Shown: positions 291-7,522 of the stretch, one piece after another | Layout: every line of letters starts with the position of its first letter | Numbering within the stretch: position 1 is the stretch's first letter | Source: an uncultured archaeon | GTDB taxonomy: Archaea; Asgardarchaeota; Lokiarchaeia; Sigyniarchaeales; SOKP01 | DNA: 64,000 nucleotides | NCBI GenBank assembly: GCA_964493715.1 | Contig: CAZBPC010000003.1 | Location: 54,577-118,576 of the forward strand | Reading direction: 5' to 3' | The notes under the pieces: generated by a model | What the model saw: the letters and a program-made list of their open reading frames with translations, nothing else | Told to the model about the DNA's origin: nothing | Databases searched by the model: none | Made by a program: the position numbers and the translations under genes

Positions 291-1403
291 TTATTTTTCA
301 ATGATCTTTTCTTCAAGGGGAACACCATAATGGGTCGCTCCAGGTCCAATATGAACTAAAATTTCATCACCTTTTTTAATGGTTACAACCGATACAGCTT
401 TTCCATTTTTATCAACAAGTCTAATAGTCTCTGCATTTTGACATATGACACTCATCGTAACGGGAGAATCCTCAACTGATGAAACTAATTCAAATCTCAG
501 CATCGGTCTGATCTCGATTTTAACTCTAGCCACTGTAACTACTCGTGTAAGACCATCCTTATTAATTATTAATACTTGGTCTCCCCCTTTTAATTCGCTA
601 AGATATTTAGTGCGATATTTTTGAGAACCTCCCGATGGAACTAATATATAAGCCGAAACATCACCTGCATTAACTCTAAATGGTCTTGAAGAAATAAATT
701 TAGTATCAAAAACTTCAGCGTGGATTAATGCAAATCCTTTAGCTGTACTCCCTATAAGCATCCCCTCTCCTACTTCAAGAATGGAAGTTGTATCTACACA
801 CACCCGTGCACTTTCAGGTATATTTTGAATATCAATAACTTTCGCATTCGTCAAGTTGATCTTAAGATTTGGTCTATAAAATTTTTTCAATTCCTCTAAT
901 TCATCTACATCTTTAGGGGCGTATAAAATCCCATCAACTCCCATTTCCAAAACATTAAGCATTAATTCTGCTTCTTTAATCGAGTATACTTCTGCGATTA
1001 AATTTATATTAGAAGAGTGCATTGCAGCAATAAGATTTTCATATGGTATAACTTTCCAATCTTTTGCTGAGACAATAATAAAATCAAGTAAGTTGGTTTC
1101 AGCAAGTCCTATAATTATATTTTCATCTTCTTTAGTTACTAACTCTCTATAAATGCCAATTTTTGAAGGATTGGCTTCGTTTTTAGATTTGAATCTTTTT
1201 ACCTCATCTATATCTGAACAAATTAGATTATTTATTGGTAATGTAAGATCCTTAGAATATATTTTTAGCCCTTCAATTTGAGAGAATTCTTGAAACGTGT
1301 CTTTTGAGACTATAATATCCAAGAAATCATGATTTAAAGCTTCTTGAATTAATTCTTCTAAATTTGGTTCTTTTTGCTCAAAATTAAGGATAATGGTCTT
1401 CAT
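291..1403 (-). CDS. aroB': 3-dehydroquinate synthase II (archaeal AroB')
   Basis: Family motifs DWKVIPYENLIA, RVCVDT, SRPFRVNAG, YLSELKGGD, RVKIEIRPM and QNAETIRL. Confidence 0.92.
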   Translation of the reverse strand: MKTIILNFEQKEPNLEELIQEALNHDFLDIIVSKDTFQEFSQIEGLKIYSKDLTLPINNLICSDIDEVKRFKSKNEANPSKIGIYRELVTKEDENIIIGLAETNLLDFIIVSAKDWKVIPYENLIAAMHSSNINLIAEVYSIKEAELMLNVLEMGVDGILYAPKDVDELEELKKFYRPNLKINLTNAKVIDIQNIPESARVCVDTTSILEVGEGMLIGSTAKGFALIHAEVFDTKFISSRPFRVNAGDVSAYILVPSGGSQKYRTKYLSELKGGDQVLIINKDGLTRVVTVARVKIEIRPMLRFELVSSVEDSPVTMSVICQNAETIRLVDKNGKAVSVVTIKKGDEILVHIGPGATHYGVPLEEKIIEK

Positions 1404-1565
1404 ATTTCATCAACAATGAAAATAAAATTTGGACTATGAAAGATTAAAGTTTAGAAATTATTTTATTTAACTAAATTTTCTATTAATATATTTAAGTCTG
1501 AAATTTCTTAATTATTAATAAAGAGAAATAATTAAAATAAACTTCCAATATGGAGATGAAACACA

Positions 1566-2216
1566 GTGGGAATTAAAAAAAAACTCTTTCCCCGAAAAGG
1601 ACAAGAGAAGGAAGAACTTGTAACTAAAGCAAAAGCTCACATACGTAAGATAGCTTTGGTAAATAAAACCTATAGCAAAAGATCAGAAATCGCAAGAAAG
1701 AATGCAAAAATTGCTTTGAAACGAGGAGAACGAGAAAGAGCGAAGAATTATTTAATCCAATTTAAACAATATCAACAGAAGGTTGACCGCGCTAATAATA
1801 TTAGAGCTAAAATAGAACGTCAAATAGAAGCTATAGATGAAGGGCGCATGATCTCAATGACTGGCGATTTGATGGGAGGAATCCGTGATGAACTTCAAGA
1901 TATTGCAAGCAAAGCAGCTCCTACCAAAATCGCAGAAATTGCGGAAGACTCTGAGGCTTATGTTTCTGAAATCGAAGAATCTGCTGAGATTTTAGCAGGT
2001 GATCCGGAGATTGACTTAGCTATCGATGTGACAGATGAATTAAATCAACTTGAAACCGAAATGTTATTAGATCAAGGTGGTCAGATACCTGAAGTACCTT
2101 CAGATGATTTACAATACATTTCGGAGTTTGATAGCGAAGAAGAAGAGCCTGAAATAAGAACTAAGGCTAAATTAGAAGACGAGATAGAAAAATTAAGAAA
2201 AGAGTTAGAATCATAA
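1566..2216 (+). CDS. ESCRT-III Snf7-family protein (Vps20/32/60-like)
   Basis: Basic N-terminal helical hairpin (AKIALKRGERERAKNYL), acidic C-half with DELNQLE, MIM2-like IPEVPSDDL and a terminal amphipathic helix. GGAGATGA RBS-like motif precedes the GTG start. Confidence 0.85.
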   Translation: MGIKKKLFPRKGQEKEELVTKAKAHIRKIALVNKTYSKRSEIARKNAKIALKRGERERAKNYLIQFKQYQQKVDRANNIRAKIERQIEAIDEGRMISMTGDLMGGIRDELQDIASKAAPTKIAEIAEDSEAYVSEIEESAEILAGDPEIDLAIDVTDELNQLETEMLLDQGGQIPEVPSDDLQYISEFDSEEEEPEIRTKAKLEDEIEKLRKELES

Positions 2217-2262
2217 AATCTATTATTAATCTACATTCTTAATAGTATCAAATTTCCTTCTT

Positions 2263-4341
2263 TTATGTATAATATCGTTTACCGTCATATTCTCGATATT
2301 TTCCTTTAATATCTTCAATTTCCTCCAATTCTTGACCTAGACATTCAATGTTCTTGTCGATTGAGTAAATCTGTTTCTGAAGGTTTTTGAAGGTCCTAAA
2401 ATAGTCAACTTCAGAGATTATTCCTTGATCGAATTTTGCATCTAACGCTTTCAAAGTTTCATCTAAACTGTATTTTTCCTTCTCGAAATCACGTAATTTT
2501 CGAAACCTTTCTTTTTCTTTTTTTGAATATTTTCTATTAGTGTCTAAATCATTAGAAATGAAATTATCTTGGTTAAAGTATTCGGACAAGTGATTTTTGG
2601 AGTAATCATTATATATGGAACGCTTTCCTTCATTTATATTCAAATATGAACCATGATCTCGTTGCAATATGTCATGAGATTCATTTACCTCTGGAGAATG
2701 AAAGAAACCATTTTTTTGAACTTGCTCGAGTTTTCTCATTAGAATTTTTTTATTATTTGGATCTATTCTCTGATTATTGTTAATAAATTGGTTCCTTTCA
2801 TAGTTCTGAATTCTGCGAGGATCGTATAAATTTTGAGGAATAAAGCGATTATCATAATATGGTTGCTTCTTTTGATTATAAATCCTTGAATTTCCATAGA
2901 ATAACAATTTTTCGGGATCTTGATAAGGAAATCCATTAAAATTAATTTGTTGGGGGATATCCTGATATTCTAGGGGAGGAATGGGTTGCGAGACTTGATA
3001 ATTCGGAATATAATTAAGTGGATTATTATTATATGCTTGATATGGTTGTTGCTGAATTCTTGAAATATCAGGGGGAATATAATTTGATTGTCTAAACATA
3101 TTTATTGGAATTAAATTGTCAGAATTTTGATTTGCACTATTATATTGGCACTTTAAACTAAAAAAAGAGTTAATAGTTTCTTCTATAAACGCAGTTATAT
3201 CATTTAAATCTATATAGATATTATTAAGTTTCTCAGCTATCTCTTGATCATACTTAATAGTCTCATCAAAATTCCTTGCTAAAATGATATAATCCAAAAC
3301 TCGGGTAATATTATTTGGTGGAAGAGTGAATTCATATCTTCCATAAGGAAATTCAATATATAATTTCTTGAACATTTTACCTTGGGATTTAATTTTAATT
3401 AAATCGTTTACAGGAGCTTTAAAAATAACTTCTTTCTTTTTGTTTAGTTTTCCATATTCATGCACAAATGATAAGTCAAGATTTGTAATAAAAAGGATTC
3501 CTCTACTTTTTTTGAACTTATCTTGAGTGTTTAAACCATTGGCTAATTTTGCATAAATAGCATAAATTGGTTTTTCATTTTCAGCTAAATTCAAGTATTT
3601 TTTATAGGTGTCAAAGTAATAGATGATTTTTTCAATAAATTTCAAATAATCTTGGATGCTTTCTATACTTGTAGAAATTGTTTTTATGTTATTGGATACG
3701 TATTCCTGAATGGAATTATTACTCCTTGTTAGATTCTCAAGTATTCCCTCAATAATAATTACATTGGCATTTGGTTGTGAGTAAATATCAAAAAAATATT
3801 CTTTATTCAATGATAAATGATTGAAAAGAATACTAATTTTCTCATGTAAATTTTCTTTTGCATAACTTAATAATTTAAATAATGCTAGAAGATCGGCTTC
3901 CAAATGGGGAAAGTGACAACATTTGATTGGAGGTGCTCGTGCGTTTTTTACTTTTTGGCGCAAATGATACATAGTATTTATGAGATCGTTCAGAGGTTCA
4001 ATGAAGTATCGCACGTTTTTAATTAAATCTAAAAAACTTTTTTCTAAATCCTCTTTTTTCTCATAGATATTAATTATTGATGTGGAATGACATTTTGGGC
4101 AAGCTTTTAATAATTGACTCCCTTGATTTATTTGTTCACTCTCACAATCTTTGCAAGAACCATATTTACCCGAATCCTTAATTTCTATATTCTTAGAATT
4201 ACAATCTTGACAAATGAAATAATCAATTTTTTCTTCATGTAAGCAATCAGAACAACAACTGGCTCCACAATCCTCACAATAATAAGCCAGCTTAATATGT
4301 CTATGGCAGAATCGACAAATTTGCACGTTTTGTTCTGACAT
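2263..4341 (-). CDS. Multidomain protein: six CxxC Zn-finger pairs, helical/coiled-coil region, PH/GRAM(GLUE)-like domain, P/Q/N/Y-rich linker, C-terminal Vps23 steadiness-box-like helices
   Basis: CRFC, CEDC, CSDC, CQDC, CKDC and CPKC; LNLAENEKPI...GILFITNLDLSF; C-terminal SLDETLKALDAKFDQGIISEVDYFRTFKNLQKQIY. Confidence 0.65.
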   Translation of the reverse strand: MSEQNVQICRFCHRHIKLAYYCEDCGASCCSDCLHEEKIDYFICQDCNSKNIEIKDSGKYGSCKDCESEQINQGSQLLKACPKCHSTSIINIYEKKEDLEKSFLDLIKNVRYFIEPLNDLINTMYHLRQKVKNARAPPIKCCHFPHLEADLLALFKLLSYAKENLHEKISILFNHLSLNKEYFFDIYSQPNANVIIIEGILENLTRSNNSIQEYVSNNIKTISTSIESIQDYLKFIEKIIYYFDTYKKYLNLAENEKPIYAIYAKLANGLNTQDKFKKSRGILFITNLDLSFVHEYGKLNKKKEVIFKAPVNDLIKIKSQGKMFKKLYIEFPYGRYEFTLPPNNITRVLDYIILARNFDETIKYDQEIAEKLNNIYIDLNDITAFIEETINSFFSLKCQYNSANQNSDNLIPINMFRQSNYIPPDISRIQQQPYQAYNNNPLNYIPNYQVSQPIPPLEYQDIPQQINFNGFPYQDPEKLLFYGNSRIYNQKKQPYYDNRFIPQNLYDPRRIQNYERNQFINNNQRIDPNNKKILMRKLEQVQKNGFFHSPEVNESHDILQRDHGSYLNINEGKRSIYNDYSKNHLSEYFNQDNFISNDLDTNRKYSKKEKERFRKLRDFEKEKYSLDETLKALDAKFDQGIISEVDYFRTFKNLQKQIYSIDKNIECLGQELEEIEDIKGKYREYDGKRYYT

Positions 4342-4537
4342 TTTTACATCTAAATCCCAATTTAATTATGAAAAAAGACAAAATTAAATAGTACTTTCAA
4401 TAATTTTGAAGGGTTTTTTTAATTTCAATAGGTATGTTATTTGTGTAATATCTCTAAAATACTGAAATTGGGTCTATTTAAATAAATAAGAAAATGATTG
4501 AAAGATTTATAACAAGTTCAAAAGATTAAAAACGAGA

Positions 4538-4834
4538 TTATTTAATGATCTTAATTTTTGTGCCTAAAGCCTGTCCTGGTAATCCTGCTCTTTTAAAATG
4601 TGCCCTAACAGCGCCACTATTACCGTGAGCTCTAGTGATAGCACCTTTCATTTCCTTTCCTGTTGAACTAATCCATAAAACAGTTCTTCCTGCTAATTTA
4701 TTTGCATCTTTTCTAGTTTTAATGGTTGGGAATACTAAGATGCAATGTTTGGGGTGAATTGTATGCCGTCCTCGTTTATAATTTGAAATCGCACCCTCTA
4801 ATCCAAGAAGTTCCAATTTATTATTCAATGTCAT
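4538..4834 (-). CDS. rpl35ae: 50S ribosomal protein L35Ae (eL33)
   Basis: NYKRGRHT and GAITRAHGNSGAVRAHF...LPGQALG signature. Confidence 0.95.
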   Translation of the reverse strand: MTLNNKLELLGLEGAISNYKRGRHTIHPKHCILVFPTIKTRKDANKLAGRTVLWISSTGKEMKGAITRAHGNSGAVRAHFKRAGLPGQALGTKIKIIK

Positions 4835-4973
4835 AACTTACCACTCAAAATAGTTGTATATTTTCCTTTAATTTAAAAAAATATTTAAAAAGATAAAAAA
4901 TTTTCGATAAATACTATATCCTCTTTTTTATAAAAGGTAAAATTTTTGTAGATTTTAGATTTATACTAAATCT

Positions 4974-6350
4974 ATGAAAGTTGCGTTTGGAAAGAAAACA
5001 ATTACTCAATTAAATTTTATAGGCATGTCATTAGCTGGTTATACTCGTAAAAAACCATGCTTAGGAAAATTAGATGATATTCATGTTCATGGTATCTTAA
5101 TTGAAGAAAATCAAGATTATCTTTTAATGCTCTCATTTGATATGCTTAAGTTACCGCTAGCTATCGTAGAATATATGAAAACTAAAATTATTTCAATTTT
5201 CCCTTATATTAAAGCAGAGAATATTCTTATTCATGCGACACACACTCATGCTTCTTTTGATCTTACTGGAGAATTTCATTGGCCTGGAGGAACTTTTAAT
5301 GTATTAAGGGGAATAATGTTTGGATCTAACAGAAATGATTTATACATTGTTTGGTTGGTTAAAAGAGTTATCCAACTACTTGAAAAATTATCAAAACAGT
5401 TAGAACCATGTAGGATTGCTTGGAAGAAAAAGCTATTTAATCCTGATATTGTTATCAATCGAAGGCATCCGACCAGGCAATCAAAACCTGAACTTGGAGT
5501 CATTGTTTTCAAGCATTTAAATAAAGATGAAATAATTGGAATAATTACAAATTACTCTTGTCATCCAACAACACTTTCATTTAAGAATTTTAAATTATCT
5601 GCCGATTTTCCAGGAAGATATGTTGAACGAATTGAACAATTAACTGAAAAAAGAACTAATGCAGTATACTTCAATGGTCCATCAGGAGATCTAAATCCAA
5701 TTACTACAAGTGGAATTGATTATAAAGCTTTAGAAGAAGAAAAGTCGTTAATATACGATCAATTAGGCACATATGAAGATACTAAAAGAATTGGATATAT
5801 TATTGCTGAAGAAGCATTAAAGTTAGCTAGTTCTATTCATAATAAGGATTATTCCGATTCTATCAGAATCGATGCGGAATTACATGAGTTTTGGGTTCCA
5901 ATGAAAGATGCAAAATATTTCAATAAAATTTGGTTCTCTAATAAGCTCTATTATTGTATTAAAAAATTATTTCTCCTTAAGATTGCTCGAATAAATCTTT
6001 TGAATGCTAATTTTCCATTTTTTAGTTTGAATAAAAAAGGAAGGAAAATTAAATGTAAAACAATTGTTCAACATTTTCAAATTACAACTGATGCTAAAAA
6101 TGCTTCAAATAAGTTAGATCTAATAACTGTGCCTGGAGAATTATTTGAAGATTTAGGAAATAAGATCCTTGAAGAATCATTGTTTGGAAGAAAAAATACT
6201 TTCATTTTTCAGAATTCTCAAGATTGGATTGCTTATTTGTTTAGCATAAAAGAGTATGAAAATTTTGGAGGATATGAGCCATTTCCAACTTTCAGTCCAT
6301 TTTCTGGTGAGATTGTATTAAATGAAGTATTAAAATTTTTTCATAAATAA
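4974..6350 (+). CDS. Neutral/alkaline ceramidase-family hydrolase
   Basis: LAGY, ATHTHA, INRR, NYSCHPT, LSADFPG, GPSGD and PGELF motifs. Confidence 0.75.
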   Translation: MKVAFGKKTITQLNFIGMSLAGYTRKKPCLGKLDDIHVHGILIEENQDYLLMLSFDMLKLPLAIVEYMKTKIISIFPYIKAENILIHATHTHASFDLTGEFHWPGGTFNVLRGIMFGSNRNDLYIVWLVKRVIQLLEKLSKQLEPCRIAWKKKLFNPDIVINRRHPTRQSKPELGVIVFKHLNKDEIIGIITNYSCHPTTLSFKNFKLSADFPGRYVERIEQLTEKRTNAVYFNGPSGDLNPITTSGIDYKALEEEKSLIYDQLGTYEDTKRIGYIIAEEALKLASSIHNKDYSDSIRIDAELHEFWVPMKDAKYFNKIWFSNKLYYCIKKLFLLKIARINLLNANFPFFSLNKKGRKIKCKTIVQHFQITTDAKNASNKLDLITVPGELFEDLGNKILEESLFGRKNTFIFQNSQDWIAYLFSIKEYENFGGYEPFPTFSPFSGEIVLNEVLKFFHK

Positions 6351-7522
6351 ATTAATTCTTCTGCCTTTTCCCAAGCATAATTATTGCTTTTTTCAATTAC
6401 AAGATTAATATTTTGACCCTTTAGAACAGCTTTTTTAACTTGATCAATAACTTTTTTCTCTATAAACTCTAACTTAGATAAATATTGATTTTTTAATACT
6501 TTTTTATCAAGTTCTCTAATGAAACGAGAATGTCGCATCCAATACCAATCTGAATTTTGGTTTTTATAAGGTCTGGATTTTAATACATTTTGATTATCAA
6601 TGGGGAATATGTATGGTTTATATAAGCTTAAACATGGAAGTGTGCTCCCAGTAAACCAATGAATAGAGTTATTTCCTCCTCTTTTCAGTTCAGAAACTTG
6701 AGATCCCGTTGATTCCAATCCACCATGCATACATATCCCAACATCATGTTCTCTTAAAAATCCCATCATCAATGATTGTTCGATTTTACCAATATTTTCT
6801 TTTAGTAATAATCTGGACTTCCCTCCACGTGAAAGTGGATTAAGAATATTAGATGGATGACTTCCTGAAAAAGTGGTAACAAAATCAAAATCATTATCAT
6901 CTTTACAATACCCCATTTCAATCGCATGAGTGATAATCCCTTCACGTCTAAAATCTCCTTTTCCACGTATTGATATCCCATTTGAGATTGACCTTACATC
7001 AATAACTTTCTCAACCACCCACCAATCATCAGCAGTTTCTAAAACATATGCCTCTTTAGAATCCGCGATAATAAAAGAATTATGATAAGTCCAGGTAGAA
7101 TCTTCATAAGAACATTTACCTCCTTGATGATATTTTTCTAATAATTCTGTAATGATTTTAGTTGAATTAAATGCAGAATTACCTCGTTCTAATCCTAGGC
7201 GGAGGAGGTCCATCCCAAGTAAACCTTCGTTTCTTAATGGCTCATGTGTATATACTGCTTCATTTCCTATAACTACACCATATTCATTTGCTCCCATTTC
7301 AGCACCCCACATCCAAAAAGGTTGACTAAGAAGAACTGCTGCTGTTTCTTTTACTTGAGGTATTGATACATGGGTGCATTTAACCATATCTCCCTCAGGA
7401 TAATGAGATTTAGGCATATAGGTGATTAATTGTATTTCATTCCGGGGACGATCGCTATTTTTACCAAAAATTACATTTCCATTATCAGTACTATTTCCCA
7501 AAGCTATTAATGTGTCACACAT
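6341..7522 (-). CDS. Peptidase C69 / secernin-like Ntn hydrolase
   Basis: N-terminal nucleophile MCDT, FGKNSDRP, WMWGAEMGANEYGVVIGNEA and LLGMDLLRLGLERG. Confidence 0.9.
   Translation of the reverse strand: MCDTLIALGNSTDNGNVIFGKNSDRPRNEIQLITYMPKSHYPEGDMVKCTHVSIPQVKETAAVLLSQPFWMWGAEMGANEYGVVIGNEAVYTHEPLRNEGLLGMDLLRLGLERGNSAFNSTKIITELLEKYHQGGKCSYEDSTWTYHNSFIIADSKEAYVLETADDWWVVEKVIDVRSISNGISIRGKGDFRREGIITHAIEMGYCKDDNDFDFVTTFSGSHPSNILNPLSRGGKSRLLLKENIGKIEQSLMMGFLREHDVGICMHGGLESTGSQVSELKRGGNNSIHWFTGSTLPCLSLYKPYIFPIDNQNVLKSRPYKNQNSDWYWMRHSRFIRELDKKVLKNQYLSKLEFIEKKVIDQVKKAVLKGQNINLVIEKSNNYAWEKAEELIYL

Follow-up and report, generated by a model that had tools for sequence, protein, structure and literature searches.

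Two convergent genes meet tail to tail in the DNA analysed here, a stretch of 64,000 nucleotides that we call the window. The gene at 1566-2216 on the forward strand encodes a Snf7-like protein of 216 amino acids, and the gene at 2263-4341 on the reverse strand encodes a protein of 692 amino acids. A sequence-only reading had picked out this compact pair with its 46-bp gap, and both open reading frames lie exactly where it placed them. In 33 of the 80 related loci the two genes are less than 200 bp apart. The same DNA is contained in 24 sequencing runs—23 salt-marsh metagenomes and one sediment metagenome—with no RNA run among them. The features of the pair are these:

1566..2216, forward strand: ESCRT-III gene, 216 aa, predicted Vps20/32/60 (CHMP4-7, 'ESCRT-IIIA') type (Pfam Snf7, PDB 9fn1_U, tree clade A)
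2217..2262, no strand: A+T-rich spacer of 46 bp between the convergent stop codons (direct sequence reading)
2266..2529, reverse strand: residues 605-692, helical hairpin, assigned as a Vps23-type steadiness box (model, profile matches, reciprocal matches)
2530..3114, reverse strand: residues 410-604, disordered P/Q/N/Y-rich linker, a lineage-specific expansion (pLDDT below 50; variable among 28 close homologues)
2575..2604, reverse strand: residues 580-589, short conserved linker motif, N-H-L-S...F (conservation in the 28-sequence alignment)
2800..2844, reverse strand: residues 500-514, short conserved linker motif, F500 and Q512-N513-Y514 (invariant columns in the 28-sequence alignment)
3115..3258, reverse strand: residues 362-409, conserved helices after the PH domain (model helices 366-374 and 380-409; 'FIEExINSFFS' conserved among 28 close homologues)
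3259..3591, reverse strand: residues 251-361, predicted PH-like domain of the GRAM/GLUE/bPH kind with strand motif G-x-L-x-x-T...L-x-F (model, Foldseek, VIA-align, bPH_3)
3592..4068, reverse strand: residues 92-250, bundle of three long helices, 'CC' (helices in the AF2 model)
4069..4341, reverse strand: residues 1-91, three predicted zinc sites (zinc ribbons) from six CxxC pairs (cysteine conservation, all-strand model, weak zinc-ribbon/B-box Pfam matches)

Domains of the two proteins

The smaller protein matches Pfam PF03357 (Snf7) with an E value of 2.5e-10 (40.7 bits against a cut-off of 27.3), which bears out the earlier call of a Snf7-like gene beside the 692-aa gene. It also matches PDB 9fn1_U, a 'Vps20/32/60-like protein', over its full length (E 1.1e-91), and in an ESCRT-III tree with two clades it groups in clade A (SH-aLRT 100). 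The genome's other ESCRT-III paralogue, a Vps2/24/46-type protein encoded on contig C24, matches CHMP2A, CdvB/Vps2-like and CHMP1B. On this sequence evidence, the 216-aa gene encodes a Vps20/32/60 (CHMP4-7) type ESCRT-III subunit.

The larger protein is a multidomain chain. Its AF2 model has strands at residues 1-91, long helices at 92-250, a seven-strand sandwich with a helix at 258-356, disorder at 406-604 and a helical hairpin at 607-686. The sequence-only reading had called four parts in it, and each of them held up: the zinc fingers, the GRAM/GLUE-like PH fold, the low-complexity linker and the steadiness box of Vps23 type. We followed conservation in an alignment of 28 close homologues and in a phylum-wide alignment of 33 orthologues. 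A scan of 1.84 billion representatives for relatives gave 344 matches at E ≤ 0.001, 100 of them at E ≤ 1e-30. The nine longest relatives (781-1171 aa) have no added known domain; they match only bPH_3, GRAM or zinc-ribbon families.

The N-terminal region carries the six CxxC pairs that had been reported (C9/12, C22/25, C30/33, C44/47, C63/66 and C81/84). None of the twelve cysteines varies among the 28 close homologues, and in the 33 phylum-wide orthologues each reaches at least 90% conservation. Conservation and model together point to three N-terminal zinc ribbons, as in the Asgard family Znr_CC_PH_SB discussed below. The spacing of the cysteines had been likened to that of FYVE and B-box domains. 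The B-box half of this comparison survives weakly (9 of 33 orthologues, best E 0.0036), and plain zinc-ribbon Pfam families match the 33 orthologues just as often. The FYVE half is not supported: FYVE, VHS, UIM and NZF have no Pfam match on the 692-aa protein at E ≤ 1, and FYVE, VHS and UIM are absent from the 25 commonest of the 77 families matched by the 33 orthologues. The proposed analogy with ESCRT-0 (Hrs) finds no support in the same FYVE results. Next come helices at 92-135, 147-184 and 191-250 (pLDDT mostly 80-95 in the AF2 model), corresponding to the coiled-coil part of the Znr_CC_PH_SB architecture.

The middle of the protein is predicted to be a PH fold. A separate model of residues 246-412 (pLDDT 85.2) adopts a PH-like fold, and its Foldseek matches are TBC1D23 PH (5.3e-5), Lam6 PH-like (1.2e-4) and the Vps36 GLUE domain 2cay_B (2.0e-4). 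VIA-align returned MTMR2 PH-GRAM (Z 13.6), Lam6 (Z 13.0) and EAP45 GLUE 2hth_B (Z 11.8). All matches from both programs belong to the PH superfold, and the GRAM/GLUE-type fold read from the strands was thus recovered with a second model. At the sequence level bPH_3 exceeds the Pfam cut-off in five of the nine long relatives, Vps36_ESCRT-II gives weak matches in 5 of 33 orthologues (best E 0.017), and neither G281 nor F292 varies among the phylum-wide orthologues. Conserved lysines, K325 among them, also lie within residues 246-412. The modelled domain is closest to GRAM/GLUE/bPH domains. A PH fold by itself is no proof of lipid binding, and membrane binding by residues 251-361 is a prediction. 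Foldseek with the whole 692-aa model also found DH-PH RhoGEFs at E 2.7e-6, with a TM of only 0.13-0.18; we take this match to reflect a similar order of parts, a PH domain after a helical bundle, rather than homology to DH.

The P/Q/N/Y-rich linker is lineage-specific. It is short in most distant orthologues, whose total length is 491-555 aa among the 33 phylum-wide sequences. Two short motifs stand out within it. The first, at 500-514, has F500, Q512, N513 and Y514 invariant in close homologues, with no conservation in distant orthologues. The second, at 580-589, has H584 and F589 invariant and N583, L585 and S586 at least 90% conserved among the 28 close homologues.

The C-terminal hairpin, formed in the AF2 model by helices 607-638 and 644-686, is by profile comparison homologous to the Vps23 steadiness box. 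The four best PDB matches of the C-terminal family profile are yeast Vps23 core (2f66_A, E 1.7e-5; 2p22_A, 5.4e-5; 2caz_A, 6.5e-5) and TSG101 (6vme_B, 0.0069), which agrees with the Vps23/TSG101 pattern noticed at first; SHOCT, the alternative, is not matched by the C-terminal segment of the window protein at E ≤ 1 and is absent from the 25 commonest of 125 families matched by the 33 segments. Vps28 and Vps37 hairpins match the same profile at E 0.06-0.85 only. Among Pfam families Vps23_core matches most often: at E ≤ 1 it is found in 30 of the 33 C-terminal segments, with a best E of 4e-7. The call rests on the family profile because the window protein by itself matches Vps23_core only at E 0.21 (14.9 bits against a cut-off of 26.8), a loose threshold at which matches also occur in 6 of 14 control genomes. 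A whole-protein profile built from the 28 homologues found nothing in the PDB below E = 1; the signal appears only with the C-terminal profile.

Moreover, the match is reciprocal. The family's C-terminal region matches steadiness boxes in six further Asgard genomes, one protein in each, and every one of these proteins combines UQ_con/UEV with Vps23_core. In the reverse search, these six UEV-Vps23 steadiness boxes find the 692-aa protein among the genome's 6165 open reading frames at E 4.9e-7 to 1.8e-3, and the sole other match in the steadiness-box region is Vps28 (E 0.097). The 692-aa protein has no visible UEV domain, as had been claimed: it has no UEV/UQ_con match with a library in which true Asgard Vps23 proteins match UQ_con at E 1e-13 to 1e-20.

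Linkage to ESCRT-III genes

Conservation of the gene pair had been proposed as a check, and the pairing extends well beyond the window's own family. Of the 80 Loki-type loci, 71 carry a convergent Snf7 gene downstream, and seven of the nine misses have less than 600 bp of downstream DNA. In a distant Asgard family, 44 of 46 genomes have a convergent ESCRT-III gene as the immediate neighbour; the two misses are at contig ends. Among ten genomes from ten families, ESCRT-III is adjacent in four, within 2.3-7.7 kb in three, and on other contigs in the remaining three, which lack the linkage. In two genomes (G007 and G310) the Znr_CC_PH_SB-type gene closes a canonical Vps25-Vps4/ESCRT-III cluster. 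Genes of this family are linked to ESCRT-III genes phylum-wide.

Two readings of the linkage were set aside. The 71 Loki-type loci are not independent evidence, because synteny extends over the entire block: peptidase C69, L35Ae, the 692-aa gene, Snf7 and DHQ synthase lie together in the window's family, and L35Ae is kept in 76 of 80 loci and DHQ synthase in 70 of 80. Nor is the link specific to the Vps20/32/60 paralogue. According to the tree, the adjacent paralogue varies by lineage, being of clade A in the window, G007, G101 and G115, and of clade B in G310, G317 and G387. Distant families keep the ESCRT-III linkage though their flanking genes differ.

The remaining ESCRT genes of this genome lie elsewhere. 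Matches to Vps4, EAP30 and Vps25 are absent from the window's contig (C3), in keeping with the observation that the window holds no Vps4 or ESCRT-II gene. EAP30/Vps22 (the genome's only EAP30 match), Vps25, Vps4 and the Vps2/24/46-type ESCRT-III are all on C24, and Vps28 is a 235-aa open reading frame on C26. In the window's lineage the 692-aa gene has thus stayed with an ESCRT-III gene, apart from Vps4, Vps25 and Vps22. A whole-genome search found no UEV-SB Vps23; the genome encodes stand-alone E2/UEV-like proteins and no UEV-SB fusion. A second steadiness-box-like protein of 467 aa is encoded on C39 and could, by sequence, be a candidate core subunit.

Candidate roles of the 692-aa protein

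The question behind this gene pair is how Asgard archaea, as relatives of eukaryotes, bring ESCRT-III to their membranes; work on Asgard ESCRT-I has so far centred on UEV-Vps23 and Vps28. We think it rather probable that the 692-aa protein is an ESCRT-I-like membrane adaptor of the Znr_CC_PH_SB family, encoded beside a Vps20/32/60-type ESCRT-III subunit, and we infer its binding steps as follows. The PH domain would hold the protein on the membrane. Packed against each other, the steadiness-box hairpin and the hairpin at the N-terminus of Vps28 would build a headpiece of the ESCRT-I type. Vps28 would then make the connection to ESCRT-II (Vps22/Vps25), and through it to ESCRT-III and Vps4. An additional ligand, for example ubiquitin or Vps28-C, might bind at the three zinc ribbons.

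CdvA recruits CdvB in Crenarchaeota. The 692-aa protein might act likewise, the PH-anchored chain directly recruiting or nucleating the adjacent ESCRT-III without Vps28 or ESCRT-II. The phylum-wide tail-to-tail pairing is in favour of such a short circuit, as is the ESCRT-III neighbour that the window's lineage kept after parting from Vps4, Vps25 and Vps22. Eight of the 33 C-terminal segments match the Pfam CdvA-like coiled coil (best E 0.002), and similarity of the steadiness-box hairpin to CdvA is reported from HHpred (Makarova et al. 2024, PMC10936438). However, the CdvA matches are below the Pfam cut-off, the hairpin profile fits Vps23 core best of all, the protein has no PRC barrel and no winged-helix-binding peptide identified, and the neighbouring paralogue changes between lineages. 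We regard this direct route as unlikely. Complex prediction with a separate alignment for each chain, pairing residues 1-410 plus the C-terminal 97 residues with the 216-aa ESCRT-III, scored 0.00 against a mark of 0.32 and decides neither way.

An ESCRT-0-like receptor for cargo or ubiquitin is very improbable. Here the zinc ribbons would bind ubiquitin or another tag, the PH domain would bind the membrane, and the steadiness box would dock onto a separate ESCRT-I core, for which the 467-aa protein could serve. The three conserved zinc sites and the stand-alone E2/UEV-like proteins fit such a role, and yeast Vps36 zinc fingers bind both ubiquitin and Vps28-C (Makarova et al. 2024, PMC10936438). 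Against it, zinc ribbons are generic modules, and no FYVE, VHS, UIM or NZF match was seen on the 692-aa protein at E ≤ 1. It is very unlikely that the protein has nothing to do with ESCRT, its hairpin a generic dimerising coiled coil and its neighbourhood inherited gene order without functional meaning: helical hairpins do draw many weak coiled-coil matches (APG6_N 21/33, Prefoldin_2 15/33, GvpG 12/33) and the Loki family has block synteny, but Vps23_core outnumbers all other families, the best PDB matches are all Vps23/TSG101, the UEV-Vps23 matches are reciprocal, SHOCT is unmatched at E ≤ 1 on the window protein's C-terminal segment and ESCRT-III linkage recurs among different flanking genes.

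Returning to the ESCRT-I-like adaptor, we see in Znr_CC_PH_SB a second and possibly older entry point, in which a predicted membrane-binding PH domain is joined to a steadiness box. The 692-aa protein is the sole bearer of a clear Vps23-type steadiness box in this genome, beside the steadiness-box-like 467-aa protein. A bolder proposal, which we hold to be quite doubtful, is that in some Loki-type lineages without a UEV-SB Vps23, this one among them, the family supplies the only Vps23-type subunit. It would be a lipid-guided, ubiquitin-independent nucleator in direct contact with the ESCRT-III encoded next to it, bypassing ESCRT-I/II in the manner of CdvA, with the linker and its motifs at 500-514 and 580-589 as a regulated docking or clustering region.

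Comparison with known systems

The 692-aa protein belongs to the Asgard-specific family Znr_CC_PH_SB (also Znr_PH_CC_SB; asCOG cog.011556), to which we assign it by architecture. As described by Makarova et al. 2024 mBio (PMC10936438), the family is a likely ESCRT-I component whose PH domain is expected to be membrane associated. Protein and family share the same domains in the same order (three zinc ribbons, coiled-coil or helical region, PH domain, steadiness box), the restriction to Asgard archaea, the ESCRT gene neighbourhoods and the functional inference; as far as that description extends, there is no difference in kind. The adaptor idea of the sequence-only reading is therefore sound and has been in print since 2024. 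The value of the window is that of a clean test case, not a discovery, because the idea is already published. The present analysis contributes the counts of ESCRT-III linkage, the lineage-variable paralogue, the lack of a UEV-SB Vps23 in this genome and the lineage-specific linker; the P/Q/N/Y linker of the window's lineage has no mention in the section of that paper which describes the family.

The hairpin relates the protein to Vps23/TSG101 at the profile level. Unlike Vps23, however, it lacks a UEV domain and has zinc ribbons and a PH domain in its place. Like Vps36/EAP45, it has zinc fingers and a PH fold in one polypeptide, and the two PH folds are broadly of one kind (2cay_B, 2hth_B). 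By contrast, it has no match to the EAP30 winged helix, its zinc fingers lie at the N-terminus instead of interrupting the PH domain, and the best sequence match of that PH domain is to the prokaryotic bPH_3 family, unlike Vps36 GLUE. CdvA is also a membrane-side partner encoded beside ESCRT-III/Vps4 genes, and the hairpin is weakly similar to its coiled coil; the 692-aa protein differs in having no PRC barrel, only sub-threshold CdvA matches and no ESCRT-III-binding peptide identified.

The 216-aa protein has a very close known counterpart. CHMP4-7 of Loki GC14_75 (KKK44605.1) is a filament-forming subunit of the Vps20/32/60 type (PDB 9FN1; Melnikov et al. 2025 EMBO J, PMC11791191). Our protein matches it over its full length as an orthologue from another Loki-type genome, with nothing else differing as tested. 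Because the filament of this close relative's ESCRT-III protein has been solved structurally, reconstitution of the pair is practical.

A convergent gene pair in a conserved block

The gene for the 692-residue protein (probable family Znr_CC_PH_SB) lies tail-to-tail with an ESCRT-III gene, just where a reading of the sequence alone had placed the two frames, and their stop codons are 46 A+T-rich bases apart. The pair and its neighbours are as follows.

1566-2216, + strand: Snf7/ESCRT-III gene, 216 residues
2263-4341, - strand: large gene, 692 residues
291-1403: DHQ synthase II, block neighbour
4538-4834: L35Ae, block neighbour
4974-6350: ceramidase-like ORF (Pfam match below cut-off), block neighbour
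6341-7522: peptidase-C69-like ORF, block neighbour

The block (291-7522) is kept in Loki-type genomes (loci L012-L091). It is also complete on a contig labelled 'Candidatus Nanopelagicaceae bacterium' (L045, DATKTW010000152.1), which carries L35Ae, a member of the 692-residue family (58% identity), Snf7 (86%) and DHQ synthase and is most likely mis-binned.

With 40.7 bits against a Pfam cut-off of 27.3 (E 2.5e-10), the 216-residue protein is a Snf7 match, and from end to end it aligns with PDB chain 9fn1_U, 'Vps20/32/60-like protein (ESCRT-III)' (E 1.1e-91). Melnikov et al. 2025 (PMC11791191) describe 9FN1 as a filament structure of CHMP4-7 of Loki GC14_75 (KKK44605.1). The window is C3:54577-118576 in a genome of 3.68 Mb and 160 contigs; G+C is about 30%. 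A second Snf7 gene, the only other one in the genome, is on contig C24, and its product best matches CHMP2A, a CdvB/Vps2-like protein and CHMP1B in the PDB. That gene is head-to-head with Vps4 (MIT, AAA, Vps4_C), and genes for Vps25 and an EAP30/Vps22 protein adjoin. Two clades, each with SH-aLRT 100, emerge from a tree of 29 ESCRT-III sequences (13 genomes): the window protein belongs to clade A, and its C24 paralogue to clade B.

Domains of the large protein

The family is small: a scan of 1.84 billion representatives returned 344 clusters at E <= 0.001, of which 100 reach E <= 1e-30. The 692-residue protein has 262 homologues at E <= 0.001. The 120 of these listed are 624-719 residues long and 48-87% identical to it; the named ones are all from Asgard metagenome bins, several auto-named 'B-box zinc finger protein'. 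The whole-protein model has a mean pLDDT of 66.8.

Regions of the whole-protein model
Residues 1-91: strands
Residues 92-250: three long helices
Residues 258-356: seven-strand sandwich and C-terminal helix
Up to residue 409: additional helices
Residues 406-604: disordered stretch
Residues 607-638 / 644-686: helical hairpin

The sequence-only reading had called zinc fingers, a PH/GRAM-GLUE-like domain, a linker and a steadiness box. These calls were accurate; its analogy with FYVE and ESCRT-0 was not. Each of the twelve cysteines in the six CxxC pairs is unchanged in all 28 aligned homologues, and across 33 phylum-wide orthologues conservation stays at or above 90%. No FYVE match was seen for the 692-residue protein at E <= 1, nor among the 25 commonest of the 77 Pfam families that these orthologues match; B-box matches occur in 9 of the 33 but are weak (best E 0.0036), with plain zinc-ribbon families equally frequent or more so.

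The middle domain does have a PH-like fold. Residues 246-412 modelled on their own gave pLDDT 85.2, and all Foldseek matches listed for that model are PH-like-fold domains, including TBC1D23 PH (5.3e-5), Lam6 PH-like (1.2e-4) and the Vps36 N-terminal PH/GLUE domain 2cay_B (2.0e-4). In VIA-align the best match was MTMR2 PH-GRAM (Z 13.6, rmsd 2.5 over 106 aligned residues), then Lam6 (Z 13.0), and EAP45 GLUE (2hth_B) scored Z 11.8. At the sequence level a minority of the 33 orthologues match bPH_3 (7), Vps36_ESCRT-II (5), PH_SLA1 (5) or GRAM (4); bPH_3 is above the Pfam cut-off in five of nine long relatives.

The linker, long and P/Q/N/Y-rich, has expanded in the window's order; most of the distant orthologues (491-555 residues) have just a short connector in its place. 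Within the close family it keeps two short conserved motifs, residues 500-514 and 580-589, that look like putative docking sites.

The C-terminus is a steadiness box, a point settled by comparing family profiles rather than by the single sequence. Alone, the 692-residue sequence matches Vps23_core weakly (E 0.21), and in the genome scan Vps23_core reached 14.9 bits where the cut-off is 26.8; 6 of 14 control genomes were also positive at the loose threshold used. A profile of 33 C-terminal segments, searched against all PDB sequences, has as its four best matches the yeast Vps23 core (2f66_A, 1.7e-5; 2p22_A, 5.4e-5; 2caz_A, 6.5e-5) and human TSG101 (6vme_B, 0.0069), followed by Vps28 N-terminal hairpins (0.06-0.85) and Vps37B (0.64). 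Vps23_core is the commonest Pfam family over these segments (30 of 33, best 4e-7). The generic SHOCT domain raised as an alternative is absent from the Pfam matches of the window segment at E <= 1.

The family profile also matches proteins of 243-265 residues in six other Asgard genomes; these are true Asgard Vps23, because all carry UQ_con/UEV and Vps23_core. In reverse, among the 6165 ORFs of the window's genome their steadiness boxes found the 692-residue protein (E 4.9e-7 to 1.8e-3) and, weakly, Vps28 (E 0.097). Their UEV parts found two E2-like proteins that stand alone, 169 and 175 residues long. A Pfam UEV scan of the genome was blank, which alone says little since the controls were silent too. 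By these searches together, this genome lacks a UEV-steadiness box fusion, and its only Vps23-type steadiness box is that of the 692-residue protein.

A 467-residue protein on contig C39 (9092-10495, - strand; L196:3093-4496) is a candidate further headpiece subunit. It has no Pfam domain; a helical N-terminus and a long P/K/E/I-rich linker precede a C-terminal steadiness-box-like hairpin (E 1.5e-6 with the steadiness-box profile of the 692-residue family, 0.018 with one of Asgard Vps23).

Linkage to ESCRT-III genes

A check of synteny across Asgard genomes, proposed with the sequence-only reading, bears out the pairing: 71 of 80 Loki-type loci, 44 of 46 genomes of one distant family and 7 of 10 genomes sampled from ten families. 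A convergent Snf7 gene lies downstream in the 71 Loki-type loci, at under 200 bp in 33 and at 0.7-1.7 kb in 38; in L044, the one of the latter looked at, the gap contains just one gene, which has a methionine-synthase-like domain. Seven of the nine misses have under 600 bp of downstream DNA; the others (L063, L090) have 6.0 and 2.7 kb without Snf7. Pairing in Loki-type genomes alone is weak evidence, because L35Ae (76/80) and DHQ synthase (70/80) are conserved in the same loci.

The family profile matches in 309 of 398 genomes, though weaker matches may be single domains. Our sample of ten genomes, drawn from as many other families, has in each case an orthologue of 491-754 residues with the same regions. 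Snf7 is convergent and immediately next to it in four (G310, G007, G101, G115; gaps 4-140 bp) and convergent at a distance of 2.3-7.7 kb in three (G117, G138, G135); the orthologue's contig carries no Snf7 in three (G126, G128, G082). In the distant family the orthologue is present in all 46 sampled genomes, with a directly adjacent convergent Snf7 in the 44; in the other two it is at a contig end, with zero Snf7 matches.

A tie to one ESCRT-III paralogue was rejected: the neighbour belongs to clade A in four cases (the window, G007, G101, G115) and to clade B in G310, G317 and G387. What is conserved is thus that the gene closes the run of ESCRT-III genes, tail-to-tail with the last of them. 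The order is Vps25-Vps4, ESCRT-IIIB-ESCRT-IIIA, then the orthologue on the opposite strand in G007, and Vps25-Vps4, ESCRT-III, then the orthologue in G310. In the window's lineage the ESCRT cluster is broken up, and the large gene and the clade-A paralogue stayed together; Vps22, Vps25, Vps4 and the clade-B paralogue are on C24, and Vps28 is on C26.

In G115 two abutting ORFs, 117 and 171 residues long, make up the clade-A gene beside the orthologue (L154:5889-6757); the split may be a frameshift or assembly error. A 947-residue HerA/DUF87-like ATPase (L154:6814-9657) lies between its two ESCRT-III genes, and G117 has a 1013-residue ORF at the equivalent position (L150:11242-14283).

Vps28 (C26:24305-25012; compared with L156-L184) is fast-evolving, with same-genus orthologues just 37-45% identical; in related Loki-type loci identity is 62-91% for ESCRT-III and 44-86% for the 692-residue family. 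Directly upstream, overlapping its start, is a zinc-ribbon protein gene (L008:9441-10340) whose Yip1-domain match stays under the cut-off (25.7 bits against 28.6, E 1.2e-5); Yip1 is a eukaryotic membrane-trafficking family. At C1:88783-89052 (L004) an 802-residue open frame matches positions 87-179 of the VPS28 profile, its C-terminal part (E 7e-6); Makarova et al. 2024 (PMC10936438) mention multidomain Vps28-C proteins, and this is probably one of them.

Role and precedent

The best-supported reading is that the 692-residue protein is an ESCRT-I-like adaptor. Folds, homology and linkage are observed, and we infer every binding step: the PH domain would sit on the membrane, the steadiness-box hairpin would pair with Vps28, and Vps28 would relay the signal via ESCRT-II to ESCRT-III. 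The main rival is a CdvA-like protein that recruits ESCRT-III directly. The zinc ribbons could possibly act as a ubiquitin or cargo receptor, which is compatible with either the adaptor or the CdvA-like role.

The protein type has already been described in print and is therefore known, so the pair is of modest interest. We found no experimental work on the family in the literature, and the combination of an Asgard ESCRT steadiness box and a PH domain only in Makarova et al. A 2025 preprint on Heimdall ESCRT-IIIA mentions none of the steadiness box, PH domain, zinc, Vps23 or Vps28. The methods of a 2023 preprint (10.1101/2023.07.25.550441) give cog.011556 as a 'Steadiness/Vps23 box' asCOG. Makarova et al. 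(PMC10936438) put the Znr_CC_PH_SB protein in this asCOG, report it from several Asgard lineages and none in eukaryotes, consider it likely ancestral, and call it 'a likely ESCRT-I component' whose PH domain is 'expected to be membrane associated'. The 692-residue protein has the same architecture in the same order, and is likened to the family on that basis.
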